Assembly: GCA_945869735.1 (NCBI GenBank)
Contig: CAMBPQ010000011.1
Coordinates: 1,023-65,022, forward strand
Reading direction: 5' to 3'
DNA length: 64,000 nucleotides
From: Planctomicrobium piriforme
Lineage (GTDB): Bacteria; Planctomycetota; Planctomycetia; Pirellulales; UBA1268
The notes beneath the pieces were generated by a model, which saw nothing but the letters and a program-made list of their open reading frames with translations, searched no databases and had not been told where the DNA came from. This document shows, piece after piece, positions 9,951 through 61,060 of the stretch (within the stretch, counting starts at the first letter, position 1; every line of letters starts with the position of its first letter). The position numbers and the translations under genes are program-made.

Positions 9951-10109
9951 TCGAACGCATTCGACTTCCGTGGATCGCCGGCTCGGGGCGGCAAAATTCT
10001 CGTCGCCGGGGCGAGGATACGCTCCAGGCTCCTCGAGCGTTCGCCGACCCCCTTGCCTCCCTCCTCCAGGCTGCCATCTCGCCGCTCCACCAAAGGCAGA
10101 GGCGGTCTA
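9951..10109 (-). repeat. Family-1 MITE-like repeat, copy A (reverse orientation)
   Basis: Aligns by eye over about 160 bp with 13587-13748 and 50725-50884. Shared cores are gggggtcggcgaacgctcgag and cgacgagaNttttgccgcc. Confidence 0.8.
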
Positions 10110-10157
10110 GTCGGCCGTGCCCTCGAGGTCGAACTCCGTTGCGACCGTGCTGCCGAT

Positions 10158-11984: not shown

Positions 11985-13337
11985 CTACTTGATATTCAGC
12001 GCTTCTTCGCCCGCTTGGGCAATGCGTTCGATGACCGCGATCATTTCGTCTTGGCTTGGATGGGGCGATAATCCGGTCGCGGCGGGAGTCGCCGGGTCGA
12101 GCCGCAGCCGGTGTGGCAGTTCGATGCCCGGGTTTTGCCAGAGTTTTGCAAGCCGCGAGGGACTCACGTTGCCGAGCCCCTTGAGCGATAGCGATCCGCC
12201 TGCATGGGAGGCGAGGATATCTGCGACTCGGTCGGTCACGCTCGTGATGCCATCGAGGGTCAGAAGCGGATGCCTCACAAGTTCACGGGCTGTCTCCTCG
12301 GTGAGAGCCGTGATGCCGTTCAACGAGAGTTCTCCTGCTCGGTGTGTCGCCAGGATCGCGGCCACCGGCGGCGTGACGTGCTCGATATTGTTCACAAAAA
12401 GTCCGGAGAGGCCGGGGATGCCCCGTGGACCCTGCTGACTCGCGAGGATCGCAGCAGTGCGTTGATCCAGCGTTGTGAGTCCGCCGAGTAAAAGTGGCCC
12501 GACATGCTGGATGAGCGACGCGAGGTGGTGGTCGCGGATGCCGCTTGGCGGCGAGAGCGAGAGGGATCCTTCGTGCTGGCCGAGGGAGTGCACAACGGCA
12601 TCGGTGATCTCGACGGCATTGAGATAGAGCGGACCTCGATGCTTCGAGAGAAGGTGCGCCTCGGTCGGCGAAAGCGACTTGAGCCCGCGGAGGCAGAGAT
12701 GCCCTGTCCGGCTGCCGAGTGCGTGGGCGGCGGCTTCCTTCAGATGCGTGAGCCGGTGGAGGTGCAGCTTGCCGAAATGCCTTGCAAGGTGCGTCGCCAC
12801 CTCGTCGGGCAGCCAAGCCAGCCCCTCGAGAAACAGATCGCCGCGCTGGCACGACAGGGCGGCTGCGGCACTCGGCGACAGGTGCTTCAAGCCCCACAGG
12901 TAAAGCTCGTTGTCGTGCTGCGCCAGGCCGAGGGCGGCTTTGTCATTGAGGTTCTGGATGCGTTTGAGTGAGAGTTCGCCATCGTGACGGCCCAGCGACC
13001 AGGCGGCTGAGTCGGAGAGCCTTCGGAGGTTGTTGAGCGAGAGCCCGCCGCCTGTGTGCTTCCCGAGTTCGGCAGCGACGGCATCGGTGACGGTCGTCAG
13101 CGTATCGAGATAGAGGTGCCCTCGATGCTGCGCGAGTTGTCGGGCCACGGAGAGCGGGAGGCGGATGACCTCATGCAGGTAGAGATGCGTGGCATAGTGG
13201 CCGATGATACCTTCGGCTGCGTCGCCGGGTGATCGCTCGAGTGAGGCCTCTCCGTAGGTCGCGGCCACGACCGGGTCGAGAGCGTCGTTCGCAAGCGTCG
13301 GCCCCGTCGCCGGAATGGGCCGGCGAAACAGGGCCAC
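11985..13337 (-). CDS. Leucine-rich-repeat-like protein, about 15 tandem 23-residue repeats
   Basis: Visible periodicity with consensus xLxLxGLxxLsxxaAxxLaxHxG, for example ELSLKRIQNLNDKAALGLAQHDN, ELYLWGLKHLSPSAAAALSCQRG and DLFLEGLAWLPDEVATHLARHFG. Confidence 0.7.
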   Translation of the reverse strand: MALFRRPIPATGPTLANDALDPVVAATYGEASLERSPGDAAEGIIGHYATHLYLHEVIRLPLSVARQLAQHRGHLYLDTLTTVTDAVAAELGKHTGGGLSLNNLRRLSDSAAWSLGRHDGELSLKRIQNLNDKAALGLAQHDNELYLWGLKHLSPSAAAALSCQRGDLFLEGLAWLPDEVATHLARHFGKLHLHRLTHLKEAAAHALGSRTGHLCLRGLKSLSPTEAHLLSKHRGPLYLNAVEITDAVVHSLGQHEGSLSLSPPSGIRDHHLASLIQHVGPLLLGGLTTLDQRTAAILASQQGPRGIPGLSGLFVNNIEHVTPPVAAILATHRAGELSLNGITALTEETARELVRHPLLTLDGITSVTDRVADILASHAGGSLSLKGLGNVSPSRLAKLWQNPGIELPHRLRLDPATPAATGLSPHPSQDEMIAVIERIAQAGEEALNIK

Positions 13338-13445: not shown

Positions 13446-14510
13446 TCATTCGGCCAAGACGGTCACGTAGAGTGGGGTCGCTGCGTCGAGGGAGGTATCG
13501 AACGCCTCGAAGCGGTGGTGCGAAGCCGCGTGCGGGGCGGAAGCCGTTCCTCCTCCGCGGGCGTCGATCGAGTGGACACGTGGTTGTCTAGATCGCATCT
13601 GCCTTTGGTGGAGCGGCGAGATGGCAGCTTGGTGAAGTAGGCGAGGGGGTCGGCGAACGCTCGAGAAGCCTGGGGCGTATCCTCGCCCCGGCGACGAGAC
13701 TTTTGCCGCCCCCGAGCCGGCGTTCCACGGAAGTCGAATGCGCTCTAGCCACTCGCGGATCGGTTCGATGGATGGCGGTTCGGTTGCCGCGCCGCTCGCC
13801 TGATCACGCTGCTCCCGCTGCCCGATGGCCTCCGTGGCTGCTGCCCGCAGTAGTTTTCGCCAGAGCTTGGCGAAGAGGTGCGGGCTCGCATAGTGATCCG
13901 CATGGCTGAGGACGCCGTTGATCGCCCACACCACGCCGACCGCGCTGCCGCTGGTCTCGGGCAGGGCCTTATCCAACACGGCCGCATAGTCCTCGACCGC
14001 GTCGGTCACGCCTTCGCTTTCGTAGGTGAGCTGCAGGCTGGTGGGGGATTCGGCGTCACTGACCTCCTGCTGAACCGCTTTTACCAGTTGCTCCTGCTCT
14101 TCCGTGATCCTGTCCCACACCTCGCTTTGGCTTTTTGAAAACCTGAGGGCGAGTCGGGCCTTCTTCGACGCGAGAAAGTCCTTGGCTGTGGAGAAGAGCT
14201 TGTCCGACTCCTTGTGGCGGCGGTGCCAGCGCGACCGCTCTACGCAGGAGGCGGGGAGCGGGATTTTTCCCGACCTGGCCGGCACGATGAAGTCGGCACC
14301 GATGGTGCGGTCCTGGCGGCCGCCCTTCACGATGTCGCCTGCTTGGATGAAGAGGTCGACGTTGCCCGTTTCATGAAGCACCGCCGTTTCGGTGGCAATC
14401 GTCTCCTCGAGAACCGCGTAGTCGCGGGCGGAAGAGACGGCCGCTGGCGGGGCGAAGATGAACCACGCGGTCAGGTTATGGACACGAACGGGCTGGCTCA
14501 GCGAGGGCAT
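13446..14510 (-). CDS. ARPP-1 / DUF6569-like protein; the C-terminal third reads through a repeat element
   Basis: NLT..., AGDIVKGGRQDRT, IPLPASCVERSRWH, SQSEVWDRI, VGVVWAINGVL and LFAKLWRKLL match my memory of ARPP-1 family motifs. This has not been verified against a database. Confidence 0.55.
   Translation of the reverse strand: MPSLSQPVRVHNLTAWFIFAPPAAVSSARDYAVLEETIATETAVLHETGNVDLFIQAGDIVKGGRQDRTIGADFIVPARSGKIPLPASCVERSRWHRRHKESDKLFSTAKDFLASKKARLALRFSKSQSEVWDRITEEQEQLVKAVQQEVSDAESPTSLQLTYESEGVTDAVEDYAAVLDKALPETSGSAVGVVWAINGVLSHADHYASPHLFAKLWRKLLRAAATEAIGQREQRDQASGAATEPPSIEPIREWLERIRLPWNAGSGAAKVSSPGRGYAPGFSSVRRPPRLLHQAAISPLHQRQMRSRQPRVHSIDARGGGTASAPHAASHHRFEAFDTSLDAATPLYVTVLAE
13587..13748 (+). 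repeat. Family-1 MITE-like repeat, copy B (forward), inside the ARPP-1-like ORF
   Basis: Best-bounded copy. The ends are tctagatcgcatctgcctttggtgg ... ccacggaagtcgaatgcgctctag, an imperfect terminal inverted repeat of about 24 bp (18/24 by eye). Confidence 0.8.
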
Positions 14511-15588: not shown

Positions 15589-16602
15589 TCAGGCCGACCG
15601 CTTGAGAGCTGGGGCCCGTGAATCGACGCGCGGTCGGGATGGTGACTCGTGCGAGCCGTCGACCCTGAGCGTGCGGGCCGATGTCTCTCCAGCTACGGGA
15701 TGGCGGGCCTCTTGGCTCATAAGAATCGCGAGTTGCCGTGTGCGGGGCACGCATGAACCAAACTGCACGAGCGCCGCGAGCCGGCCCGCAAGCATGCCGA
15801 ATGTGCCCCAGGGGACCGTCGCCGCCGCATGCCGCAGCACCTCGCCGGCGTGGGCGATCAGAGCAGGCACCAGACGTTCGCAAGATAGCGATCGCCAGAA
15901 GAGCCGCTCGGCATGGAGGCCGGCCGTAAACCCGCCGCAGCACTGCTGGGCCGGACCGCTCACGACCCGTGAACTGGTCTCGACGATCACGTCGAGCTTC
16001 GCCGCTGTGAGCGCCGCCGCCATGTCGGCGGCCGCGAGCGAGTCGCCGCATGCCGTCGAGAAACCGATGGTGGTCAGGACCTCGGCCCGCCAAAACCCTG
16101 CCTCGATGATCGGAGCCGACGGCGCTACGCGCATCGTGATGCTGCCATCGTCGTTACGATGCGGCACCACCGGCACGCTCCTGCCCCCTGCAGCGCGGTA
16201 AATGCCAGCCACTACGGGCTGGTCGCAATCGCCCTCGGAAACAGCGAGCGGCACCACGGCGCCGACGTCGCCGCGAGCAAAGTGGTCAAGCGCCCGATCG
16301 GTCCAGCCCGCGGTGGCCTTCCAGCCCGCGGCGAGCACGTGGACCACGTCGCCCGTACTCGCGGCCGCACCGGCGTTGATGCACTCGACGAGGCTCACAG
16401 CCTGAGGCACGTCGACGAACGTGACCTCGTCGCGGATGTTCCACGGATCGTCATAGGGGACGCCGAGCGCGACGATTACGTCGCAGGCGTCGGGCCGATG
16501 TTCGAGGACGCTGATGAGCGTTTCCTCGAGCGCAACGACGTTGGTCGCGGGAACTACGATCGAAAGCCGGCGCGGCCGCCCTGCGTAAGCCTGCATCGAC
16601 AT
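15589..16602 (-). CDS. Glycosyltransferase family 2-like protein
   Basis: LSIVVPATNVVALEETLISVLEHRPDACDVIVALGVPYDD is a GT-A fold N-terminus. The rest is not diagnostic. Confidence 0.55.
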   Translation of the reverse strand: MSMQAYAGRPRRLSIVVPATNVVALEETLISVLEHRPDACDVIVALGVPYDDPWNIRDEVTFVDVPQAVSLVECINAGAAASTGDVVHVLAAGWKATAGWTDRALDHFARGDVGAVVPLAVSEGDCDQPVVAGIYRAAGGRSVPVVPHRNDDGSITMRVAPSAPIIEAGFWRAEVLTTIGFSTACGDSLAAADMAAALTAAKLDVIVETSSRVVSGPAQQCCGGFTAGLHAERLFWRSLSCERLVPALIAHAGEVLRHAAATVPWGTFGMLAGRLAALVQFGSCVPRTRQLAILMSQEARHPVAGETSARTLRVDGSHESPSRPRVDSRAPALKRSA

Positions 16603-19138: not shown

Positions 19139-19594
19139 ATGGCCGTCACCACCCAAGAGACGATTACCCTGCTTCTCGAGAGCTACCAGATGGAGCTCGA
19201 GACGGTGCTCAACTACCTCGCCAACAGCACGAACCTCGACGGCGTGCGGGCCGAGGAAATCAAGAAGTCGCTCGCGGCCGACGTGACCGGCGAGATCGGT
19301 CACGCCCAGCAACTTGCCAACCGCATCAAGCAGATTGGCGGCCACGTGCCTGGCTCGAAGAGCCTGGTGTTCGGCGGTCAGATCCAGCCCGTCACCGTCA
19401 CCACCGACGTCGTCGGTGTGATCAAGTCGGTGATCGCCGCCGAGGAGGCCGCCTGCGCGCAGTACAAGAAGATCATCAGGGCGGTCGACGGCGAGGATTA
19501 CGTCACCCAGGATCTCTGCATCCGTTTGCTGGCCGACGAAGAGGGGCATCTGGTGCAGTTCAAGGGCTTCCTGAAGGAATACACCACGGGCTAA
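19139..19594 (+). CDS. Ferritin-like / DPS-like domain protein
   Basis: ELETVLNYLANS..., GEIGHAQQLANRI, EEAACAQYKK and ADEEGHLVQFKGFL give a four-helix-bundle E/H ligand pattern. The internal ATG was chosen to avoid overlap with the preceding gene. Confidence 0.7.
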   Translation: MAVTTQETITLLLESYQMELETVLNYLANSTNLDGVRAEEIKKSLAADVTGEIGHAQQLANRIKQIGGHVPGSKSLVFGGQIQPVTVTTDVVGVIKSVIAAEEAACAQYKKIIRAVDGEDYVTQDLCIRLLADEEGHLVQFKGFLKEYTTG

Positions 19595-19596
19595 GG

Positions 19597-19651
19597 CGCA
19601 TTCGCTTTTGGGAGAGCGGCGAGATGGCACATACGTTGGATGCGCTCTCAG
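19597..19651 (+). repeat. Family-1 repeat, miniature derivative (ends only)
   Basis: gcgcattcgcttttgggagagcggcgagatggca...gttggatgcgctctc retains the left arm and right terminus of the 160-bp element. It lies in a convergent intergenic gap. Confidence 0.55.
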
Positions 19652-19691
19652 GCGGCCGCAGGGACTCCGCGAGAATCACGTGGAGGCCGGC

Positions 19692-20519
19692 TCACTCGCT
19701 GAGAAACTCTTCCAGCGCATCGCGAAGCATCTCTGCATCGGGCTCGACGCCCGACAGGGCGTGGAAGTCGATCGCCGTCTGCGCAGCGTGGATCTCGATC
19801 CCATCGACGACACAGCACCCCTGATCGGCGGCCTGCGCGGCGGCGGGAGAGAGGTGGCCGGCGAGCACGGCGTCGGCGACGAAGACTTCGCGACGCAGCT
19901 CCATGAACGCGGACTTGTGGCCGCTGAGCGGCGCGAGCACGATGATGCCCACCTGATCCGGCAGGGCGATTGCGGCCTGCCATTCGAGCATCGAAGCTTC
20001 CACCGCGTGGACGCCTGTGAGCGCGTCGACCAGCGCAAGCGTCCGCTCTGCTTGCGGATCGCAGACGAGCAGTCGCGATGCGCCGGCAAGCGCGAGTTCG
20101 AGGGCCGCAGCCCGGCCACAGGCATCGGCGCCCACGATCAGCACCGACTTGCCCGCCGGGTCGACGTGGGCCCGCAGCGCCTCGACGATGCCGCGGCCGT
20201 CGGTCATGTGGCCGACGAGGCCTTCGGGCCGCTGCTCAATCAGGCTCACGGCGCCGGAGAACGTGGCTGTCGGGCTAGCCGCGGCCACGAGCGGGAGCGC
20301 TGCTTCGCGAAGCGGACCGGAAAGAACACAGCCGCGAAATCCGAGGGCGCCGACGCCCGCAATCGCAGCGGCTACGTTTCCTGCTGCGACCTCGCAGGTG
20401 ACGAACCGCCAGTCGAGTTCGGCTGCGGTGATCGCCCGCTCAAAGAGATACTGCGCCGGATTGCCGGCGGCCGGGCAGCCGAGCAGCGCGATGAGTTCCT
20501 GGAGGGCGGGGCTGGTCAT
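19692..20519 (-). CDS. aroE: Shikimate dehydrogenase
   Basis: The GNPAQYLFERA region, GFRGCVLSGPLRE, MTDGRG and VLIVGADACGRAAALELA (Rossmann) are present. Confidence 0.8.
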   Translation of the reverse strand: MTSPALQELIALLGCPAAGNPAQYLFERAITAAELDWRFVTCEVAAGNVAAAIAGVGALGFRGCVLSGPLREAALPLVAAASPTATFSGAVSLIEQRPEGLVGHMTDGRGIVEALRAHVDPAGKSVLIVGADACGRAAALELALAGASRLLVCDPQAERTLALVDALTGVHAVEASMLEWQAAIALPDQVGIIVLAPLSGHKSAFMELRREVFVADAVLAGHLSPAAAQAADQGCCVVDGIEIHAAQTAIDFHALSGVEPDAEMLRDALEEFLSE

Positions 20520-20585
20520 CCGATGATCCGTCCTTGCATCCTTGCATCCAGGATCCGTCCGCGACTCACCGCGGATCGGAATCGC

Positions 20586-21140
20586 TCACACCACCACCAG
20601 CGTGGCCGCAAGGAATCGTGGATCCCCCCGGATCGGATCGAAGTCGCGCTCCGCACCGGTGAGATCGCGGAAGCGGTCGTCGAGCGAAATCGCCTGCGTG
20701 AGGTGTCCCACTGCCGCCGACACGTCACCGGCGAGCGAGTGATAACAGGCAAGGTTATAGAGCAGGAGCGGCTGGCTCGGCGCCGTCTCAAGACCGGTGT
20801 GAAGCACCTCGATGGCCTCCTTGAGCCGACCGAGTCGCTTGTAGCACCAGCCGAGGCCAAGCCAGGCCTCCAACTGGTCGGGTACGGCCTCCGCCGCCCG
20901 CCGGAACGGGGAAACAGCCGCTTCCCATTCGCCCAGGGAACGGAGGGCACGCCCCTCGAGCAGGCTCGCCACCGGCCCGGAACGGTTGGGTTCCGGCAGG
21001 TGCCGCAGTTCCGCCAGGGCCCGCTGCAGCAGTTTTCGGCCGTTTTCAGGCACGGGCGCGTCGCCGTCGGCGAGCAGCTCGCCGAGTTCGATATAGCCCG
21101 CGGCGTGCCGCAGGTGCAGATGTCGACAAAGGCTGTTCAT
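20586..21140 (-). CDS. Tetratricopeptide repeat protein
   Basis: Repeated W..LG.CY..LGRL.EA and YNLACYHSLAGD TPR signatures. Confidence 0.7.
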   Translation of the reverse strand: MNSLCRHLHLRHAAGYIELGELLADGDAPVPENGRKLLQRALAELRHLPEPNRSGPVASLLEGRALRSLGEWEAAVSPFRRAAEAVPDQLEAWLGLGWCYKRLGRLKEAIEVLHTGLETAPSQPLLLYNLACYHSLAGDVSAAVGHLTQAISLDDRFRDLTGAERDFDPIRGDPRFLAATLVVV

Positions 21141-21406
21141 GGATCGAGGGGCCCCGGGCGATGTGCCGAGTTTTGCCGTCTCCGGTAAATTTTAGCCCGC
21201 GTTCTGGAAACGCCAACCCAACAGACGACATCTCTACGCAGGAAAGCCCCCGTCGGATCGCTCCCGACAAAGCTTTCTGGCCAGCTTTTCGCCGCTGGCC
21301 AGAAAATCTGCACGAAAAGTCCGAGGGAATGCCACTCTTATCTATGGAAGGGCGAAAGAAGGGCACGCGAGCCCCTGCAGCCCCGACCCACCTCCCGGAG
21401 GACTAG

Positions 21407-23692
21407 ATGCGGCTGACCGTGAGAACCCTGCTGGCCTGGATCGACGGCGTGCTCGGCTCCGACGACCAGAAGGCTCTCGGCGAGAAAGTGGCCGCGAGCG
21501 ATGTGGCTCCGCGGCTCGTCGAGCGGACGAATGGCGCCGTGGCTCATCCGGGGCTCTCGGCCCCTGCGCCGGAGGGCAGGGGGCTCGCCGACGACCCCAA
21601 CACTGCGGCGGAGTTTCTCGACAATGTGCTCGGAGCGGAACGCCTCCAGGTCTTCGAACGGGTCTGTATCGACTCAGACATACATCTGGCGGAAGTGGCT
21701 GCCTGCCACCGCCTGCTCGCCGAGATGACTGGCGACCCGCAGGCTCTTGAGCTTCTCGATGCAGGTCAGCGGCGAACGCTTCTGGCCGCGGTCGCCAAGC
21801 ACGTCGCCGCTAGCGGAAAACCGGCTGCGATGAATGCCGCCCTTGCAGGGACCGAGCGGCTGCGCACGCCCGAGTCTTCGGCCGCGGCACGACAGTCGAC
21901 TCGCGCGGTGGCCCCGGTGTTGTCTTCTCAGCCGCGCCGCCCGCCGCGGAAGGCCCCGCTGGCCGCATGGATTTCGGCTGCCGCTGCAGTCGGCCTGCTG
22001 CTCCTGCTGGGGGGCTTTTTTGTCTGGTCGCTCACTCGCGGCAACGGCAGGCGCGGGCCGAAGCCCACAGAGATCGCCGTCGCGTCGGTCGTGCCCGAGT
22101 CACCGCCCGAGAAGCCGGCAGCGGAGCCTGCGGCCGTGGTGAAACCAGTCACCGTCGCCGAGCCACCGGCCGCACAGGCTCCGATCCCCGCCGCGATCCC
22201 GGAGCAACCCATACCACCGCCGCCCGCGGCCGCCCCCGCCGAGCAGCCTGCCGTGGCCGCTGCCGTGCCACCGTCGCCGCCCAGCCTGCTGGGCCTGGAG
22301 GAGCATCGCGTACCCAACGGCGACGCGCTCGCGATCGTCGCGCCGCCGGCCGCGCGGCCGGTCGCACCAGACGGACCGGTGATGGCACCCATCGGCCAGG
22401 CGGCTGATGCACGCCTGGCACTGCACGACCCGCCTGCCGCCGGTGCACCGCTTCCCGATGCGGCCACCGGAGGCGATGTTGGCCTGCTTTTGCATCTTGT
22501 GGAAGGGAAGGAGAGGCCGCGCTGGCAGCCGCTTAGAGTCAACGACGCGCTCGCCGATCGGGAAAATCTGCTCGCGCCGCCCTGGTGCCACTCGGTAGTC
22601 ACGATCAACGGGATAACGATCCGGCTGCATCCCGACACCCGCGCCGTGCTGAGCCGCGATCCCGACGGTACACCCCGGCTCGAGGTTGTGTTTGGCCGTG
22701 CCGTGGTAAGAGGCGAGGCCGCCGACGCGAAGCTCGGCGTGATGGCGGGCGGACTGTGCGGCGTGCTCTCCGGAGTGATGCGGCAGCCAGCGGGCATCGA
22801 AGTCTTGCTCACGCGGGATGCGGGAGGCGACGCGGAGCCACGGAGGCGAGCGACCATCTTCGCGGGAGCGGCCGAGAAAGTGTGGCGGCAGACGGGGGCC
22901 GACGGCGGCGCAGCTGAACCGCTCGCGGGCATGCCCGCCGAACTGCTCGTCGCCCCGCGGGCTACGCTTGCCTGGGACGACCGTGACCCGGCGGCCGGCG
23001 TCGTCGGCCCGCCGCCCGTCGACCCCACGTGGATGAGTGCCACGGCCAGCAACGACCGCCTCGCACGGGCCGCCTCGCGGACGCTTGCCGGTCTGCTCAC
23101 AACGGATGCCGATGGCGATGTCGAGAAACCGCTCAGTGACTTGGCGGACGATCGACGCGTTGAGAATCGAATGATTGCCGCTGCCACGCTCGCGCTGCTC
23201 GGCGACTACGACCAGTTGGTGACGCTGCTCGGCGACGAATCGCCGCGCGGGATGCTCAACGAGACCCAGTGGACGACGCTTGAGGAGATGACGGTGCCGC
23301 TGGCACTCGCCCGCGGTGAGAACGCCGCCGCCAGGCTCGGCGACGCGCTGCAAACCTGCGGCCCGGCCGGCAAGGGCGACATGCTTTTGAGACTGGCCAG
23401 GGGATTCACCGACGCCGAACTCGCAGCCGGCGAAGACGCACTCCTGGTCGGAGCGCTCGACGACGGCAGTCTTGCCGTGCGTCGCTACGCGATCCGCCGG
23501 CTCATCGAGATCGTGCAGCCAGACGCACGTCACCGGATGGGGTATCGGGCCGACCGGGCGCCCGGGATCCGGAAGGACGGGATCGCGTGGTGGAACTCCC
23601 AGCTCCAGCAGGGCCGCATCCGCCGCGAGCCGCCACCCGCAGAGTCGGCCCCACCCGCAGCGTCGCGTCCGGCGGCACGCGACGACGAGTGA
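21407..23692 (+). CDS. Large membrane-anchored hypothetical protein (Pro/Ala-rich linker, C-terminal HEAT-like repeats)
   Basis: 761-aa ORF with a TM segment AAWISAAAAVGLLLLLGGFFVW, a P/A-rich tract, and C-terminal RRVENRMIAAATLALLGD / LAVRRYAIRRL repeats. Confidence 0.6.
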   Translation: MRLTVRTLLAWIDGVLGSDDQKALGEKVAASDVAPRLVERTNGAVAHPGLSAPAPEGRGLADDPNTAAEFLDNVLGAERLQVFERVCIDSDIHLAEVAACHRLLAEMTGDPQALELLDAGQRRTLLAAVAKHVAASGKPAAMNAALAGTERLRTPESSAAARQSTRAVAPVLSSQPRRPPRKAPLAAWISAAAAVGLLLLLGGFFVWSLTRGNGRRGPKPTEIAVASVVPESPPEKPAAEPAAVVKPVTVAEPPAAQAPIPAAIPEQPIPPPPAAAPAEQPAVAAAVPPSPPSLLGLEEHRVPNGDALAIVAPPAARPVAPDGPVMAPIGQAADARLALHDPPAAGAPLPDAATGGDVGLLLHLVEGKERPRWQPLRVNDALADRENLLAPPWCHSVVTINGITIRLHPDTRAVLSRDPDGTPRLEVVFGRAVVRGEAADAKLGVMAGGLCGVLSGVMRQPAGIEVLLTRDAGGDAEPRRRATIFAGAAEKVWRQTGADGGAAEPLAGMPAELLVAPRATLAWDDRDPAAGVVGPPPVDPTWMSATASNDRLARAASRTLAGLLTTDADGDVEKPLSDLADDRRVENRMIAAATLALLGDYDQLVTLLGDESPRGMLNETQWTTLEEMTVPLALARGENAAARLGDALQTCGPAGKGDMLLRLARGFTDAELAAGEDALLVGALDDGSLAVRRYAIRRLIEIVQPDARHRMGYRADRAPGIRKDGIAWWNSQLQQGRIRREPPPAESAPPAASRPAARDDE

Positions 23693-29640: not shown

Positions 29641-29722
29641 GATTCCCGATCGTGACGGGGGCGCGGAGCGAGACGAGGTGGAAGGCGTAATCCCCGCGCT
29701 CCCGCTTGGGGCTTCCGGAGGG
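29641..29722. repeat. Family-2 short repeat, copy a
   Basis: gattcccgatcgtgacgg ... tccccgcgctcccgcttggggcttccggaggg. The cores recur at 46321-46352 and 60986-61060. Confidence 0.65.
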
Positions 29723-43822: not shown

Positions 43823-44665
43823 ATGTTCAGCCGATTTAGCTCGTATGTGAAGACCGCGTTTACGACGCGATGGAATCTACTGCTCTTCGGCGGCGGCGTG
43901 GTCGCGGCGTTCATCAGCGGCTTTCCCGGTATCCTGCTGCCGTTGGTGGTTGCCAGCGAGGTCTACTACCTGGCGAGCATGCTTGCCAACGACCGCTTTC
44001 GCAGCGCTGTTGAGGCGCAGGATGCGAAGTCGCGGCGGGCCGTGGAGGCGTCAGGGGCCCGCGAGGCGTACGAACGAATCCGGAAGAATCTCCCGCCGCC
44101 ACTGCTCAAGCGATTCGATCAGCTTCGGGATCATTGCCTCAAACTCGTCGAACTCGGCGGCAGCATGCGGGGGCCGGACGGCGGCGGCCCCGACACCAAC
44201 GCTTTGGAGTCGCTCGACCGCCTGCTCTGGGGCTACCTGCGGATGATCTGGGGGGCGTCCACGCTTTCCGACTTCCTCAACCACACCGACGACGCCGCGA
44301 TCCGGGCGCGGATCGCCGACCTCGAGCGACGGCTGGCGAAACTTCCCGGAGGTGATCCGGGCTCCGCGCAGATGCGGGCCGCCCTCGAGGATCACCTGAA
44401 GACAAGCCGCGAGCGGCTCGACAATATCGAGGAGGCCCGCCGGAAGCTCGACCTCGTGTCCGCCGAGGTCGAGCGGCTCGAGGCCAAGATCGCCGCGCTC
44501 GCCGAGAGCTCGGTCGCGAAGCGGGACGTCAGCGACATCGCGAAGCGGGTCGACGAGGTGGCCGAGGGGATGCGGAAGACCGACGAGACGATGCGGCAGC
44601 TCCAGCTTCCGCCGGAGCTCGAAGACCTCGACGAGGCCCCGCCGATGCTCCGCGAGGAGGCGTAG
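43823..44665 (+). CDS. Membrane-anchored coiled-coil protein, hypothetical
   Basis: Two N-terminal hydrophobic helices (WNLLLFGGGVVAAFISGFPGILLPLVVASEVYYLA), then long E/R/L/A heptad-like stretches. Confidence 0.6.
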   Translation: MFSRFSSYVKTAFTTRWNLLLFGGGVVAAFISGFPGILLPLVVASEVYYLASMLANDRFRSAVEAQDAKSRRAVEASGAREAYERIRKNLPPPLLKRFDQLRDHCLKLVELGGSMRGPDGGGPDTNALESLDRLLWGYLRMIWGASTLSDFLNHTDDAAIRARIADLERRLAKLPGGDPGSAQMRAALEDHLKTSRERLDNIEEARRKLDLVSAEVERLEAKIAALAESSVAKRDVSDIAKRVDEVAEGMRKTDETMRQLQLPPELEDLDEAPPMLREEA

Positions 44666-44695
44666 AGAGCGGCTGCGGGCTCGTGTGGCGGGGCT

Positions 44696-44824
44696 CGGGG
44701 CTGCCCGTGCCCGTCGCCGGACGCTCGCTGCGGGCATCCTGCCCTTCGCTCGCTGCGCGGCGGCTGCGCTTCGCCATCCTGGCTTCGCTGGCCGCCGAGC
44801 CCGGCTCCCGGGCACGGGCAGCCC
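44696..44824. repeat. 17-bp perfect inverted repeat (ggggctgcccgtgcccg / cgggcacgggcagcccc) with a 95-nt spacer
   Basis: The arms at 44696-44712 and 44808-44824 were read directly. The spacer contains degenerate direct repeats (catcctgSCttcgct). Confidence 0.8.
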
Positions 44825-44984
44825 CTCGCTAGGGGCGAGAGGACGGTGGTGTTTCGCGTGTCGCCGCCGGGATGGCGGCGAGTCAGGCGCGGCGAACCTT
44901 GGCTTCGCCCCGCCTGACCCAAGCGCTGGCTTCAGACGGGCGTCCGCCCGTCGTGGCGGCAGGATGCCTGTGTTTCGCGTGTAT

Positions 44985-46127
44985 TCAGTCCAGCCAGTCG
45001 GCTTCTTCGAGCCGTTCGGGGGTGTACGTGTCGGTGACGTAGCTGATGTCCTTCGAGATCAGCGACTCGACCTCGAGCTTGAAGCCGTTGGCGAGCATCA
45101 TCTCGATCTCTTTCTGCCACGCCTTCTTGCCGGCGAACCAGGGATAGGCGGCAATCTGTTTCGCCCGCTTGATGTCGGTGTCGTTGAGCTGGATCTGGAC
45201 GCTCGGGGAGAGTTTGCACCGCTGATAGTCGCGGGAACGGATGCCAAGGAACTTGGCCTCGGGGATCGCCATTCGCTTCGATTCGTAGGCCAGGTTGATC
45301 GAGCCCTGCTTGAGCACCGAGTAGATGTAGTAGCCCCAGGGATCGTTGTCGAGCAGACAGTAGACGGGCAACTTCAGCTCATTGTGGAGTCGGTGAAGCA
45401 TTCGCCGCACGCCCCGCGGCGGCTGGCCACCGCCATGGGTGAGCAGACAGTTGTGTTTCCGCCAGAACTTATCCTCGTTGAACCGCCGCCAGACCGTGTC
45501 TTTCTCGACGTGGAGAATGAACGTGGCGTCACAAGTCTTAAACTTCACCACATCGGCCTCGACGATCGAGGGTATCGAGTAGCCGCCGGAGCCCATCCGA
45601 GAGCAGTCGATCTCGTCGCCCGAGTCGATGAGCGTGATCGGGCCGACCATGCCGCCGCGGTTACTCGCATAGACGTGGAGTTCTTCGCGGAGGCTCTCCA
45701 GCGTGACCTCGAGGTCCTCAATGATCGGGTCGCACTCCTCCTGCGCGGTGAAGGTCTCCTCGCGGGTGCCCTCGATCGTGTGCTTGAGGAGGTAGTAAAG
45801 ACCTCGGATACTCGTGGTCTTCTGCTGGTCGAGCAATTGCTTGCAACCGGTGGCCACAAGCAGGGTCTGCATGTAGCTCTTGGCCTGCGAGAGATTGAAG
45901 AGCTGACGGCGGTTTGTCTGGCCGCCCATCTCGATGATTTTCTGCGACTTGTTAAAGCGGACATTCGAGAGGCTGCGGGTGGGGATGTCGAGGAAGGGAT
46001 CGCGGCGCTTCTCGGCGGCGGCCGCGACCTCGTCGGCGAGGCCCTCGATCAGCTTGAGCGTCTTGATGTCGACCGCAGGCAGTTTGCCGGCGGCGGCCTT
46101 CGCGGCGCGTTTCGACTTCGTGGCCAT
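44985..46127 (-). CDS. DNA topoisomerase VI subunit A / Spo11-like protein
   Basis: SIRGLYYLLKH is the region of the catalytic Tyr in the winged helix. The Toprim domain shows ILHVEKDTVW (Glu), LLTHGGGQPPRGVRRML and VYCLLDNDPWGYYIYSV (DxD). Downstream are GSINLAYES and EAKFLGIRSRD. The 380-aa length is typical of Top6A. Confidence 0.85.
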   Translation of the reverse strand: MATKSKRAAKAAAGKLPAVDIKTLKLIEGLADEVAAAAEKRRDPFLDIPTRSLSNVRFNKSQKIIEMGGQTNRRQLFNLSQAKSYMQTLLVATGCKQLLDQQKTTSIRGLYYLLKHTIEGTREETFTAQEECDPIIEDLEVTLESLREELHVYASNRGGMVGPITLIDSGDEIDCSRMGSGGYSIPSIVEADVVKFKTCDATFILHVEKDTVWRRFNEDKFWRKHNCLLTHGGGQPPRGVRRMLHRLHNELKLPVYCLLDNDPWGYYIYSVLKQGSINLAYESKRMAIPEAKFLGIRSRDYQRCKLSPSVQIQLNDTDIKRAKQIAAYPWFAGKKAWQKEIEMMLANGFKLEVESLISKDISYVTDTYTPERLEEADWLD

Positions 46128-46203
46128 GTCGGGTAAAGTAAGTTCAAAGGAAACCGGTGGAAAACGACCGGAATCCTACCTGCAATCACGGCCACCCGCA
46201 TCC

Positions 46204-46302
46204 ATGTCGAAATACACGCTCTCCTACGCACTCCTCGGACTATTGATCACCCTGGGGGTGTATCTCGTCTGCCGGCCCGCCCGCCGCTTCGATCCGGAAT
46301 GA
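46204..46302 (+). CDS. Possible 32-aa single-TM peptide
   Basis: MSKYTLSYALLGLLITLGVYLVCRPARRFDPE. The only support is an ORF plus a hydrophobic helix. Confidence 0.2.
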   Translation: MSKYTLSYALLGLLITLGVYLVCRPARRFDPE

Positions 46303-46320
46303 TCTGGTGGCGGGCCGTAT

Positions 46321-46352
46321 TCCCCGCGCTGGCGCTTGGGGCTTCCTGACGG
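46321..46352. repeat. Family-2 short repeat, copy b (core only)
   Basis: tccccgcgctggcgcttggggcttcctgacgg matches 29691-29722 and 60986-61016. Confidence 0.65.
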
Positions 46353-50724: not shown

Positions 50725-50884
50725 ATAGAGCGCATCTGCCTGTGGTGGAGCGGAGAGATGGCACCCTGGAGGAGGGAGGCAAGGGGGTCGGCGAACGCTC
50801 GAGGAGCGTCGGGCCGCCGAGGCCCTCAGCGACGAGAGTTTTGCCGCTCCAAGCCGGTGATCCACCACAGTTGAATGCGCTCTC
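50725..50884 (+). repeat. Family-1 MITE-like repeat, copy C (forward)
   Basis: gatagagcgcatctgcctgtggtggagcgg...ggtcggcgaacgctcgaggagc...gacgagagttttgccgc...ccaccacagttgaatgcgctctc. It lies between tex and infA. Confidence 0.8.
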
Positions 50885-54864: not shown

Positions 54865-54940
54865 GAAGGGGCCTCCAGGGCCGGGGAGAATCGCGAAACC
54901 GGCGGCCATCTGCAAGGTCGGTTTGCCGGGGCGAGACGTA

Positions 54941-55092
54941 CACGACTTTGATGGATCGCCGGCACGGGGGCGGCAAAAGTCTCGTCGCCGGGGCGAGGAT
55001 ACGCCCAAGGCTCCTCGAGCGTTCGCCGACCCCCGTGCCTCGTCCCCTGGTGCGCCAAGTCGTCGCTCCAGATCTTCCGAATGCGATCTAGA
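54941..55092 (-). repeat. Family-1 MITE-like repeat, copy D (reverse, rearranged right arm)
   Basis: cgactttgatggatcgccgg...ggcaaaagtctcgtcgcc...ctcgagcgttcgccgaccccc...ccgaatgcgatctaga. Confidence 0.7.
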
Positions 55093-56421: not shown

Positions 56422-58131
56422 TCACGGCGTGAGCGCAGGGGACCCGTCGGCGGGCGCACGCTCGGCACGGGGGCGGGGCCGCGGCATCGGCGCCGGCGCG
56501 GCGCCCTGCCGCACCGCCGCACTAGCGGCGATCGTCCGGATCGCGCCGGCATCGGCTGAGAGCCGAATCGTGACGCCGCGTGCGACCGGCTGCACTGAGA
56601 ACCGCACCTGCGTCGTGTCCTTTACCGCCGCCTCCTCGGCCACCTCGCGGAGCATGTCGCCCTGCGAATCATCGGGACTGAACGCTTTTGTCATCTTCGC
56701 CGCGTAGTCGATCAGGCTCGCAAGCGACAACTCGACGCCGCTGATTGGCTTCGAATCGGGAAGGGGTTTGCCGCCGGCGCCCATCACGGCCGCCAGCCGC
56801 TTGGGCACGTTGCCGCCTGCCATCAGGTAGGCATACTGCGGTAGGACTGCGAGTGTGAGCGTGACCTTGTCGCCGAGTTGCTTGGCGACAGGCGTGCCCG
56901 ACACGTCGATGGTGACCTCGTGGAGCCGGGCGTCGCTCTGCTTGCCGGTGTCGAATTGTACGGTGACATTCGCCGGCAGACTGTCCTTGGCGGCGAGCCG
57001 CTCCTTGACCTTCTTCTCGAGCGCGGCCCCGTCCTTGATTCGCATGCCGACGGTCAACGCCGGCAGCGGCTGCTCCTCGTTGGCTGCGCTCGTGTCGAGT
57101 GTCATGCCTGCATCGACACTTCCGGTCTCGAGCATCGCGGCGACCATGTCGCTGGCGAGGCCGGCAAGCGTCGTCGCCATCGGATCGGTTCCACCCGACG
57201 CCAGGGCGCCGAGGATCCCGGCCTCGATCACCGCGCGGGTAGCCGCGGGTACGGCCTGGGCGTAGTGGCCGCGCACCGCAGCGGGCTTCCCGTCAGCGGT
57301 GGCCGGCGAGCCGACCGTGGCCGTCGCCTTCGCGGCATCCGTCCAGACGTCCGCCGCCGCGGAGCCTGGTGCCATCACGGCAGTCGTGTCGAGGAGCATG
57401 AGATTCTTGTCTTTGTCGACGGCGAATCCGAACAGGAGTCTCTCGACGTCATCGAGGTTGTCGATCACGGCTGCCAGCGGGGCGGCATCCATTGCCTGCC
57501 CCTGCGCCGCGGCGGTTCGCGCGGCCTCGTCGAGCAGACCCTTGAGCCGCTGACGCATCTCGTCGGGCATGCGGGACGGGAAGAGTTCGATGCCGAGCGA
57601 ATAGTCTTTCACGACCGGACCGATCAGCGGCAGCGGATCATCGATCCCGGCGGTCACCCCCTCCTGCGAGATGATCGCCCAGCCGTTCTTTTCGGAGATC
57701 GTGACGAGCGGGGCACCGGGGAGTGCGATGCGTCGCACGCCATCCACCTCCTCGACCGGCCCGGTCATGCCCCGGATCGCCTCGAGGAGCTTGCCGAGAT
57801 CCTTCACGGGCACGAAGGCATGCGCCGACGGCAGCGGGCCTCCTTCCGTGGTGACGACCACGCCGATGGGCCGCTTCACGTCGAGCCCTGCCAACCCCTT
57901 GCCCTGCGTCGCCAGCAGCAGGAACGACTCCGCGAAGCCGGCGAGCGTGGGGTTGCCCACCTGTTCGCCAACCCACGTGAGCTGGTCACGGAGTTCGGCA
58001 TAGCCATCGCTGGCAACGACGGCAATTACCTCCGGCTGGCCGGCCGCGCGGCTCACCGTTCCTCCGCAGAGCAGGGCGACCGCGACCACCTCGATTCCGC
58101 GGATGGAAAGGGAAGACAGGCAGGGTCGCAT
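56422..58131 (-). CDS. Secreted hypothetical protein (alternative upstream start at 58173)
   Basis: Signal-peptide-like N-terminus MRPCLSSLSIRGIEVVAVALLCGGTVSRAAG. The ORF is about 570 aa with no recognised motif. Confidence 0.55.
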   Translation of the reverse strand: MRPCLSSLSIRGIEVVAVALLCGGTVSRAAGQPEVIAVVASDGYAELRDQLTWVGEQVGNPTLAGFAESFLLLATQGKGLAGLDVKRPIGVVVTTEGGPLPSAHAFVPVKDLGKLLEAIRGMTGPVEEVDGVRRIALPGAPLVTISEKNGWAIISQEGVTAGIDDPLPLIGPVVKDYSLGIELFPSRMPDEMRQRLKGLLDEAARTAAAQGQAMDAAPLAAVIDNLDDVERLLFGFAVDKDKNLMLLDTTAVMAPGSAAADVWTDAAKATATVGSPATADGKPAAVRGHYAQAVPAATRAVIEAGILGALASGGTDPMATTLAGLASDMVAAMLETGSVDAGMTLDTSAANEEQPLPALTVGMRIKDGAALEKKVKERLAAKDSLPANVTVQFDTGKQSDARLHEVTIDVSGTPVAKQLGDKVTLTLAVLPQYAYLMAGGNVPKRLAAVMGAGGKPLPDSKPISGVELSLASLIDYAAKMTKAFSPDDSQGDMLREVAEEAAVKDTTQVRFSVQPVARGVTIRLSADAGAIRTIAASAAVRQGAAPAPMPRPRPRAERAPADGSPALTP

Positions 58132-58219
58132 CGGGAAACCTCGTGCTGGTAGTGATGGAGCAGGACCACTCAAATCGTATCAGATGCGACGTGAAATCTG
58201 TATTCTAGAGTCTCTCCTG

Positions 58220-60688: not shown

Positions 60689-60762
60689 GCCGAGCAGGAT
60701 CGGACGGCTCACGCTTTCTTTGCGGTCACTCGACATCGGCGGTGTCTCCCACATCGCCACGT

Positions 60763-60810
60763 CCCTCAGCGACGAGACTTGTGCCGCCCCCGAGCCGGCG
60801 ATACACGGAC
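60763..60810 (+). repeat. Family-1 repeat, partial copy E
   Basis: ccctcagcgacgagacttgtgccgcccccgagccggcgatacacgga matches the right half of copies B and C. Confidence 0.55.
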
Positions 60811-60949: not shown

Positions 60950-61060
60950 GAACCAATCCGGCACCGTCTCGATGCGACCCGGATACCCCACGTTCACGCT
61001 TGGGGCTTCCTGACGGGAGGCAAGCTGCACGGATGATCGAACCGATTCCCGATCGTGAGG
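60950..61060. repeat. Composite of the family-2 repeat (copy c) and an 18-nt direct repeat
   Basis: gaaccaatccggcaccgt occurs at 60950-60967 and again at 61179-61196. The family-2 cores are at 60986-61016 (accccacgttcacgcttggggcttcctgacgg) and 61044-61060 (gattcccgatcgtgagg). Confidence 0.65.

Follow-up and report, generated by a model that had tools for sequence, protein, structure and literature searches.

The window analysed here, a 64-kb stretch of DNA from a freshwater Pirellulales planctomycete, encodes what looks like the A subunit of DNA topoisomerase VI (Topo VI) without a B subunit beside it. This raises the question whether top6A belongs to an ordinary Topo VI with a partner encoded elsewhere, to a DNA-breaking enzyme of a different kind, or to a newly arrived cassette. 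With a probability of about 0.93, we take its product to be the A subunit of a conventional A2B2 Topo VI, the B subunit of which would be encoded at an unlinked locus of the same genome; the presence of Top6B is established at the level of clade and population. The features of the locus are given in Table 1.

Table 1. Features around top6A, with positions counted from the first letter of the window
Feature	Position	Strand	Remarks
280-aa membrane and coiled-coil protein, no family assignment	43823..44665	+	convergent with top6A
Structured spacer, 319 bp	44666..44984		separates top6A from the 280-aa gene, 3' end facing 3' end
Perfect 17-bp inverted repeat	44697-44713 / 44809-44825		closes a 95-nt structured domain
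Stem-loop, 15-nt arms, 7-nt loop	44882..44918		inside the repeated unit, ~67 nt past the top6A stop
top6A, DNA topoisomerase VI subunit A	44985..46127	-	380-aa ORF, ATG start
Divergent intergenic region, top6A / micropeptide ORF	46128..46203		position only
32-aa transmembrane micropeptide ORF, MSKYTLSYALLGLLITLGVYLVCRPARRFDPE	46204..46302	+	divergent from top6A; missed by gene callers
Short dispersed repeat ('family 2')	46292..46352		just past the DegT stop; copies at 29662-29722 and 60956-61016
DegT/DnrJ/EryC1 aminotransferase, 433 aa	46360..47661	-	neighbour throughout the split clade

The top6A gene and its product

The original prediction had assigned the 380-aa ORF to the Top6A/Spo11 type on account of three motifs. 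All of them are present (SIRGLYYLL from residue 106, HVEKDTVW from residue 206 and, with the DxD motif, LLDNDPWGYYIY from residue 258) and align with the catalytic parts of Top6A proteins of solved structure. Residues 40-379, the N-terminal region included, align with Top6A of Saccharolobus shibatae (2zbk_A, E=1e-72), and the second structure match is Top6A of M. jannaschii (1d3y_A, E=3e-48). The NCBIfam equivalog NF003333 is matched with 556.3 bits (cutoff 465), residues 15-380 covering profile positions 3-367 of 367, and all three Pfam Top6A domains (PF04406, PF20768 and PF21180; TP6A_N, Topo_VI_alpha and TOP6A-Spo11_Toprim) exceed their gathering scores.

The alignments also place the individual catalytic residues. 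In the 5Y-CAP domain, R108 and Y112 (S106-I-R108-G-L-Y-Y112) pair with LREAYY of 1d3y and IRDLYY of 2zbk. The conserved arginine and the catalytic tyrosine of this domain are R99 and Y103 in M. jannaschii, and they correspond to R108 and Y112 here. In the Toprim domain, E208 of HVEKD pairs with VEKD (2zbk) and IETS (1d3y), and D260-N-D262 pairs with DADP and DGDP of the solved structures. The T2BI box, defined as (R/K)xExx(A/S) for the Topo VI/Spo11 type, as RVELNAM for Topo VIII and as xWELDAL for Mini-A, is found as K350-L-E352-V-E-S355-L and pairs with RAEQQS of 1d3y. Judged by its sequence, the ORF is a real gene encoding a canonical Top6A.

The order of 5Y-CAP winged helix, small beta domain and Toprim domain is the same as in archaeal Topo VI (S. 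shibatae 2ZBK, Methanosarcina mazei 2Q2E, M. jannaschii 1D3Y), from which the present case differs by its bacterial host and by the two genes not forming an operon. Topo VIII and Mini-A, type IIB enzymes of mobile elements (PMC7671362), have 5Y-CAP and Toprim in common with the window protein, and Mini-A, too, is an A-like protein that stands alone. Unlike these, Top6A of the window has neither the RVELNAM nor the xWELDAL box, and its gene is located amid conserved housekeeping genes without any mobile-element genes.

The partner subunit and the fate of the operon

As the original prediction had stated, there is no Top6B or other GHKL gene in the window: tblastn of the 64 kb with archaeal and with Pirellulales Top6B gave no match, and no HATPase_c domain turned up when 35 of the 40 putative window genes, together with the RecB fragment with which the window opens, were scanned against Pfam. 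Contigs from the same population, whose gene tables cover the flanks out to 10 kb, list no GHKL gene either. A motif scan for Top6B yielded 120 genome loci, 118 of which encode a real Top6B, and in most bacterial lineages among them top6A follows directly after top6B. In Top6B of the Pirellulales type, the N-box, G1, G2, PHPYG, RFANRVPL and SESKEA motifs are all intact. The clade of the window carries a lone, highly conserved and canonical Top6B (P0241; 664 bits with NF003218, cutoff 274, and 492 bits with TIGR01052, cutoff 381), the gene of which never adjoins top6A.

The prevalence of the two subunits is similar, since Top6A (P0001) occurs in 105 indexed blocks and Top6B (P0241) in 116 blocks of the same project series. 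The corresponding numbers for a sister population, again within one project series, are 26 blocks (P0034) and 28 blocks (P0255). The sample lists for A and B have project series in common and no identical sample accession. The divergence between the sister populations is matched as well (92.5% for Top6A, 90% for Top6B), and over the 81 loci with both genes the divergence of A correlates with that of B (Spearman 0.73); the nearest operonic relatives show an identity of ~76% for A and ~66% for B. The two subunits seem to share their evolutionary history, being orthologous with operon-encoded pairs, and both appear to be under strong purifying selection. For Top6A, identity amounts to 85-100% over more than 120 clusters, and near-identical proteins are common to several sister species.

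Both a B subunit encoded elsewhere and a canonical Top6B of matching phylogeny as the mark of an ordinary split Topo VI had been named in the original prediction. Such a lone Top6B does exist in the same clade and population, and an ordinary split Topo VI is therefore the reading that we follow. Two candidates for the window genome's own Top6B, P0224 and P0151/P0255, had to be discarded because they belong to other populations. The isolate EUL_332 (L036) was rejected as the window's species, since its DNA shares only 85-91% identity with the contigs that carry Top6B in the sampled populations. A search for bacterial Top6A/B pairs on plasmids returned haloarchaeal megaplasmids only.

How the two genes became separated can be read from their neighbours. 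Among the metagenome matches listed, top6B is located directly upstream of top6A on the same strand in 36 of the 42 loci with a Top6A 72-79% identical to that of the window, whereas it is within reach in none of the 38 loci with an identity of at least 84%. All of these 38 loci keep the synteny of the window, and more than 100 samples yielded contigs with the same top6A neighbourhood. Upstream of top6B, relatives that have kept the operon share orf135 and orf116 with the split clade, while the arrangement Tex-DegT...hyp280-ABC flanks top6A in the split clade only. It is therefore top6A that moved. In some relatives the top6A unit is inverted in place.

These gene orders suggest a single break-up of the top6BA operon in a well-sampled freshwater clade of the Pirellulales, brought about when top6A relocated. 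The relocation appears to have been intragenomic and to date from the ancestor of the clade, with its own top6BA operon as the donor site. Starting from the ancestral order orf135-orf116-top6B-top6A, top6A would have reached the site between the DegT gene and the 280-aa gene, beside a small transmembrane ORF and with an upstream region of its own, and the unit would later have been flipped in place in some sister lineages.

Flanks, repeats and base composition

The convergent gene downstream of top6A, as well as the tiny ORF and the DegT gene upstream, had been described in the original prediction and are confirmed. The 280-aa protein contains transmembrane segments and a coiled coil, and its weak profile matches concern the coiled coil only. 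Its gene belongs to the conserved flank and stays put when the top6A unit inverts. The micropeptide ORF, in contrast, forms a divergent two-gene unit with top6A and stays beside its start even in relatives with an inverted unit. It is conserved at the peptide level in about 25 loci, with conservative substitutions and without frameshifts. The region between the two divergent ORFs presumably has been the promoter of top6A since the operon was split. A scan of the spacers for sigma-70 promoters gave no match, the consensus used being one that does not cover planctomycete promoters.

The structured spacer of approximately 320 bp that had been noticed beside the gene is real. Within its 319 bp lie the 17-bp inverted repeat and two exact direct copies of the 13-bp sequence GTGTTTCGCGTGT (at 44849 and 44970; 0.06 expected by chance), and its predicted fold has an energy of -184 kcal/mol (z = -5.6). 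The arms of the inverted repeat pair in the minimum-free-energy fold and have no other site in the window. As a whole, the spacer consists of tandem copies of a unit of ~95-121 nt that contains a hairpin and starts with ACACGCGAAACAC on the top6A strand. Its length varies among strains (293, 319, 414 and 514 nt) by copy number and by 26-nt hairpin indels. No Rfam family was found in the spacer, and a scan with a terminator consensus was uninformative; the hairpin array is likely a bidirectional terminator or a stabiliser of 3' ends.

On the other side of the gene, the family-2 repeat and its two further copies could be verified too. The notion of a gene bracketed by repeats holds insofar as both repeats exist, but they belong to different, unrelated families, and the downstream one has no further copy elsewhere in the window. 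Inverted repeats bracketing an invertible top6A unit were also considered and rejected, since in this window the two spacers are linked merely by imperfect matches of 11-15 nt. The repeats around top6A are ordinary intergenic hairpin elements.

The window reaches its lowest GC content, 0.594, at 45001-46000, and the overall GC content of top6A is 0.607. The deficit sits in codon positions 1 and 2 and is thus due to the amino acid composition. In regard to third positions, top6A had been thought to use more A/T-ending codons than its neighbours, which is not the case: its GC3 is 0.856 compared to 0.831 +/- 0.028 in 15 neighbouring genes (that of top6B is 0.881). The codon usage of top6A is fully native. 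Since the locus is moreover conserved in relatives with at least 84% identical Top6A, a recent acquisition does not apply.

Competing readings and the likely role of the enzyme

One could assume that the protein is a stand-alone, Spo11-like DNA breaker that manages without Top6B or with a partner other than a GHKL protein, as the original prediction offered as its second option. Mouse SPO11 dimers cut DNA in vitro without partners, at least according to the available part of PMC11922746, and a 64-kb window without a GHKL gene would suit such an enzyme, as would a top6A with an upstream region of its own and, in the whole clade, no linkage to top6B. It might even feed RecBC and SbcCD, as the window, for which recBC and sbcCD had been reported, does encode SbcCD, RecC and a fragment of RecB. 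These genes, however, are located 35-45 kb from top6A among unrelated housekeeping genes, and no candidate partner is present nearby. What makes this reading very unlikely is that the clade keeps a canonical Top6B of matching prevalence with intact ATPase and transducer motifs, that A and B co-diverge, and that operon-encoded Top6A is directly orthologous to the window protein, with 72-79% identity. Also, conservation as high as this over a clade of family rank is in keeping with an essential housekeeping enzyme. Eukaryotic Spo11/TOPOVIBL has a homologous catalytic core with the same logic of tyrosine, Toprim and T2BI box; the partners of Spo11, though, are degenerate B-like subunits and its breaks come without strand passage, whereas Top6B appears to be canonical and ATPase-competent here. 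A lone Top6A in a window is no evidence for a Spo11-like breaker.

Even less probable is a recently acquired mobile cassette that brought a foreign Top6A and inserted between the repeats. The GC minimum, the structured repeats at both sides, the relocation of top6A to this site and the inversion of the unit in some relatives might be taken as its traces. Against this stand the native GC3 with a dip explained by amino acid composition, repeats of different families (the downstream one a local tandem array), the lack of any integrase, transposase or target-site duplication around top6A, the unchanged synteny in all 38 listed relatives down to 84% Top6A identity, and a donor site that would be the genome's own operon. 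Of the proposed horizontal acquisition only a deep archaeal origin of bacterial Topo VI is left, as stated in the available part of PMC11302465, and of the proposed insertion only the relocation of top6A, presumably within the genome of the clade's ancestor. The probability is next to nil for a defence nuclease of the Wadjet/MksBEFG or another type, in which a JetD-type Toprim protein would act with the adjacent coiled-coil protein. PADLOC gave weak matches of Top6A to JetD (25.6 bits) and of the 280-aa protein to the coiled coil of JetC (19.9 bits). The former concerns the distantly homologous Toprim part only, that is, the C-terminal 180 positions of the JetD profile, and compares with 556 bits for the Top6A equivalog. 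The N-terminal domains of JetD are absent, neither JetA, JetB nor an SMC ATPase head of the JetC kind is encoded nearby, the 280-aa protein remains with the flank upon inversion, and the T2BI box is that of Topo VI. A Wadjet/JetD reading of top6A is effectively refuted. The locus gives no indication of a DNA-breaking enzyme that acts alone, nor of a recently arrived cassette.

A conventional Topo VI with separately encoded subunits would be expected to work like the archaeal enzyme. With ATP, two B subunits would close and trap one DNA duplex, and the A dimer would cut a second one with Y112, positioned by R108, while E208, D260 and D262 would hold Mg2+. The captured duplex would pass through the break, which would then be resealed. 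In Pirellulales, going by the literature, Topo VI would most likely serve as decatenase and relaxase of the chromosome. According to the part of Allen & Maxwell 2024 (PMC11302465) available to us, which does not deal with the present genome, Pirellulales possess gyrase and no Topo IV, and the Pirellulaceae, Lacipirellulaceae and Thermoguttaceae have both Topo VI subunits next to gyrase without Topo IV. The same text describes a lineage-specific helical insertion in Top6B of P. staleyi; Pirellulales Top6B is without the C-terminal extension of the M. mazei and haloarchaeal proteins. Top6A of the window falls into the clade of these enzymes (Pirellula staleyi, Lacipirellula parvula, Thermogutta terrifontis), which come from the same order. 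It differs in gene order: one sub-clade has its subunit genes at unlinked sites, and the B-A operon persists in sister Pirellulales.

Since the operon was split by the relocation of top6A, co-transcription of the two subunits is not required. It is unlikely, if somewhat less so than the readings discussed above, that the uncoupling itself is functional, with A being regulated separately or Topo VI being tethered to the membrane or modulated via the micropeptide, for instance in chromosome segregation. Bacterial Topo VI is spread over many more phyla than the list of 17 families from 2024 would imply, and this wider spread bears on what the enzyme does in bacteria. For Pirellulales, a Topo VI with both subunits has already been published, as the available part of PMC11302465 shows. 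The window protein itself is also deposited already, as MEI6504916.1, where the automatic name 'DNA topoisomerase IV subunit A' is misleading.

Identity of the protein encoded by top6A

The motifs that the original prediction had quoted as hallmarks of Top6A are indeed present in the 380-aa protein, where they start at residues 106, 206 and 258. All three Top6A/Spo11 Pfam domains (TP6A_N, the small all-beta domain and the Top6A-type Toprim domain) were matched over their full length, and the NCBIfam equivalog model for Top6A was matched with 556 bits (cutoff 465) over profile positions 3-367 of 367. The best matches among solved structures were all Top6A proteins, namely those of Saccharolobus shibatae (E=1e-72, residues 40-379 of the window protein), Methanocaldococcus jannaschii (3e-48) and Methanosarcina mazei (9e-45). 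R108 and Y112 align with the R99/Y103 pair of the M. jannaschii protein, and the alignments to the solved Top6A structures place E208 at the Toprim glutamate and D260/D262 at the DxD motif.

According to Takahashi et al., the C-terminal T2BI box tells Topo VI and Spo11 from Topo VIII and Mini-A, as it reads (R/K)xExx(A/S) in Topo VI and Spo11, but RVELNAM in Topo VIII and xWELDAL in Mini-A. The window protein differs from the latter two, since it possesses K350-L-E352-V-E-S355 and thus the Topo VI form. Kinship with the defence protein JetD is reduced to a single match of 25.6 bits to its Toprim end, the only one obtained with defence-system models. Together, the Pfam, NCBIfam and structure matches, the T2BI box and the weakness of the JetD match show the protein to be a bona fide Top6A. 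We consider it very likely (probability of about 0.93) that top6A encodes an ordinary subunit of a known enzyme and belongs to a bacterial clade described before, with the Top6B partner seen at the level of clade and population. The addition to this knowledge is only a modest one: in one sub-clade, the operon was split when top6A moved to another site.

The NCBIfam models for Top6A carry the misnomer 'DNA topoisomerase IV subunit A', so that public records of the protein bear the name of another enzyme, ParC of Topo IV. Topo IV is reported to be missing from Pirellulales (PMC11302465). The Pirellulales clade of bacterial Topo VI was described by Allen and Maxwell in 2024, whose article gives both subunits for Pirellula staleyi, Lacipirellula parvula and Thermogutta terrifontis, with gyrase in all three and Topo IV in none, describes a unique helical insertion in the P. 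staleyi Top6B and proposes that Topo VI acts as the decatenase in the absence of Topo IV (PMC11302465). From archaeal Topo VI and the literature we infer a possible decatenase role and the enzymatic mechanism of the Topo VI studied here.

The identical Top6A protein is encoded by 99 lake-metagenome contigs (105 index blocks) and is recorded as NCBI MEI6504916.1 from a Planctomycetota MAG; its close relatives are labelled Pirellulales. Contigs from more than 12 samples share 99.3-99.8% DNA identity and the same gene order with the window, and identity to its Top6A reaches 85-100% in more than 120 protein clusters. In the same relatives, Top6A is better conserved than its neighbours DegT (approximately 75% identity) and Tex (approximately 78%).

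The Top6B partner and the distribution of bacterial Topo VI

As originally noted, the window contains no gene for Top6B or another GHKL protein. No GHKL domain was detected by Pfam in 35 of the 40 putative genes called by codon-position G+C or in the RecB fragment at the window start, and six-frame searches of the window with archaeal and Pirellulales Top6B found no Top6B. We therefore turned to other genomes with Top6B motifs derived from an annotated haloarchaeal top6B-top6A operon and from solved Top6B structures. Scanning one genome per species for R[FY]AN[RK][VI]PL in G+C-rich codons yielded at least 120 loci (L009-L128), and 118 of the 120 listed encode a real Top6B. Among them, top6A directly follows top6B in most bacterial lineages, for instance in Phycisphaerae, Myxococcota, Rokubacteria, Nitrospira and even in the Pirellulaceae member Laterigemmans.

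No top6A follows top6B in the three Pirellulales-type loci with enough downstream sequence (L036, L052 and L094); a fourth, L033 from Aeoliella, was left out as uninformative with only 176 nt downstream of top6B. The Top6B proteins of these loci have all ATPase and transducer motifs intact, plus an insertion. Searched with them, a large protein collection yielded more than 120 Top6B clusters at 83-98% identity, all with HATPase_c and Topo-VIb_trans domains. One 90%-identity cluster of 179 members includes P0127, which shares its sample series (GROS21-1) with the window contigs, P0241, present on 86 contigs (116 index blocks), and P0243, with records in NCBI, JGI and ENA. P0241 clearly exceeds the cutoffs of both Top6B equivalog models (NF003218: 664 bits, cutoff 274; TIGR01052: 492 bits, cutoff 381). 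On the contigs of these three proteins top6B stands alone, preceded by ThuA, a TPR protein and two small ORFs and followed by variable genes, and top6A was never found near it.

The sample lists displayed for Top6A and Top6B have project series in common but no identical accession. Near-identical Top6A is common to several sister species, so that it does not single out one Top6B variant for the window genome. In a sister population, the two subunits match in divergence (A 92.5%, B 90%) and prevalence (26 and 28 index blocks). Overall, A and B divergence is correlated (Spearman 0.73, 81 loci with both genes), with no parallel divergence at a Top6A depth of 31-67% among the loci with both genes in L009-L128 and L200-L241. 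The Top6A proteins of these loci form two classes of 31-36% and 52-79% identity to the window protein; linked Top6B is approximately 47-50% identical to Pirellulales Top6B both in the former class and in the 52-67% part of the latter.

The Top6B scan matched many bacterial groups, among them Rokubacteria, Methylomirabilota, Nitrospirota, Acidobacteriota, Myxococcota, Binatia, Eisenbacteria, Elusimicrobia, Kiritimatiellae, Lentisphaerota, Verrucomicrobiota, Fibrobacteraceae and Burkholderiales. Judged from these sequences, the distribution of bacterial Topo VI looks far wider than the 17 families given in PMC11302465. Three loci are probably from mislabelled or contaminated bins: L094 (CAMDDJ010000083.1, 67% G+C, Pirellulales-type Top6B), titled 'Candidatus Kuenenia stuttgartiensis' MAG, and two further Top6B loci, L116 (CAYMSD010000082.1, 68% G+C), titled 'Klebsiella sp.' bin, and L043 (QWIH01000071.1, 70% G+C), titled 'Leptolyngbya sp. 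PLA1'.

Separation of top6A from top6B

A metagenome scan with the window Top6A yielded at least 80 loci with flanks. Top6B is encoded in none of the 38 listed loci with 84-94% identical Top6A, many of which have the full 4 kb upstream. Among the 42 listed loci with 72-79% identity, top6B lies directly upstream on the same strand in 36 (median gap 84 nt); five of the others are too short upstream to judge, and L231 lacks top6B in 2.7 kb of upstream sequence. The 84-94% group keeps the neighbourhood Tex-DegT-[tiny ORF, top6A]-280-aa gene-ABC transporter, and these neighbours are absent around top6A in the operon-retaining group. Operon-retaining loci with long enough flanks possess homologs of orf135 and orf116, the two small ORFs located ahead of the solitary top6B of the split clade. 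Being common to both groups, these ORFs mark the top6B locus as the ancestral site. On the evidence of gene order, top6A is the gene that moved, and the operon appears to have split once.

In six split-clade loci (L174, L176, L190, L194, L195 and L196), the unit of tiny ORF and top6A is inverted in place between ABC-hyp280 on one side and DegT-Tex on the other, as compared with the window and L162-L199. No long inverted repeats able to drive this inversion are visible in the window.

In L231 (Ga0066697_10014674), Top6A is encoded at 2771-3853 and 78% identical to that of the window, and the upstream sequence holds a 472-aa ORF. This locus may represent a second, independent operon split.

Surroundings of top6A

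The kilobase with top6A has the lowest G+C content (59.4%) of the window (average approximately 66%). The excess of A/T-ending codons seen by eye did not hold up, as GC3 is 0.856 versus 0.831 ± 0.028 for 15 other window genes. The dip sits at codon positions 1 and 2 (0.575 and 0.391) and results from the amino-acid composition of the protein, in which F, Y, M, I, N and K make up 27% (approximately 16% in neighbours). The unlinked top6B has a native GC3 of 0.881. Nothing suggests a recent transfer of top6A.

Coordinates of features in the window
Feature	Position	Strand	Remark
top6A	44985-46127	-	380 aa, ATG start
Uncalled 32-aa ORF	46204-46302	+	MSKYTLSYALLGLLITLGVYLVCRPARRFDPE
280-aa gene	43823-44665	+	conserved neighbour
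Structured spacer	44666-44984		319 bp, between convergent 3' ends, downstream of top6A
Pfam-less ORF	21407-23692	+	761 aa
Pfam-less ORF	56422-58173	-	583 aa
Pfam-less ORF	19608-21188	+	526 aa
Pfam-less ORF	11985-13337	-	450 aa
Pfam-less ORF	15589-16602	-	337 aa
Second dispersed repeat	9953-10119, 13588-13745, 19582-19629, 50726-50850, 54936-55041, 60755-60809		approximately 100-160 nt

The region is a housekeeping one, encoding RecB (truncated by the window start), RecC, SbcD, SbcC, Sir2, lipoate ligase, a ribosome hibernation factor, PTS EIIA and enzyme I, RNase E/G, GlpD, UbiD, RarA/MgsA, D-Tyr-tRNA deacylase, PspA, an AAA ATPase, an ABC transporter, DegT, Tex, IF-1, a release factor, DprA and others. 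At E ≤ 0.001, Pfam gave no match for five sizeable ORFs whose codon-position G+C resembles that of coding sequence. The 280-aa neighbour combines transmembrane segments at its N-terminus with a coiled coil at its C-terminus and has only weak coiled-coil matches (JetC, 19.9 bits; an archaeal SMC-related protein, 20.4 bits).

The originally noted perfect 17-bp inverted repeat and exact 13-bp direct repeat were recovered in the spacer, whose fold is far more stable than that of shuffled sequences (z = -5.6). Alignment of strain variants reveals a tandem array of a hairpin-bearing unit, with two copies in the window and three in the variants L002/L005, and a further 26-nt hairpin indel. Spacer length varies (293, 319, 414 and 514 nt) among strains otherwise more than 99% identical (L001/L002/L004/L252, from 11144 onward). 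The spacer matched no Rfam family and has no further copy within the window, but segments of it are also present downstream of the top6A genes of close relatives. It most likely serves transcription termination or 3'-end protection for both convergent genes. On the upstream side, the family-2 element is a different, short motif dispersed in three copies over the window; the copy near top6A lies just past the DegT stop codon. Repeats thus lie on both sides of top6A as described, but being of different kinds they are not a matching pair bracketing the gene.

The 32-aa ORF, predicted to form one transmembrane helix with CRP and basic residues after it, is conserved at the peptide level in approximately 25 related loci. 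Its orientation is divergent from that of top6A throughout, and it travels with top6A in the inverted loci. In five loci (L165, L178, L179, L186 and L193), a longer ORF ends in this helix and also contains a conserved 'APxLxQAxKP...NVPGAxMAxNF' segment.

No copy of the second dispersed intergenic repeat flanks top6A. Its copies are 85-95% identical, occur in both orientations and look like a REP/MITE-type element of the window genome.
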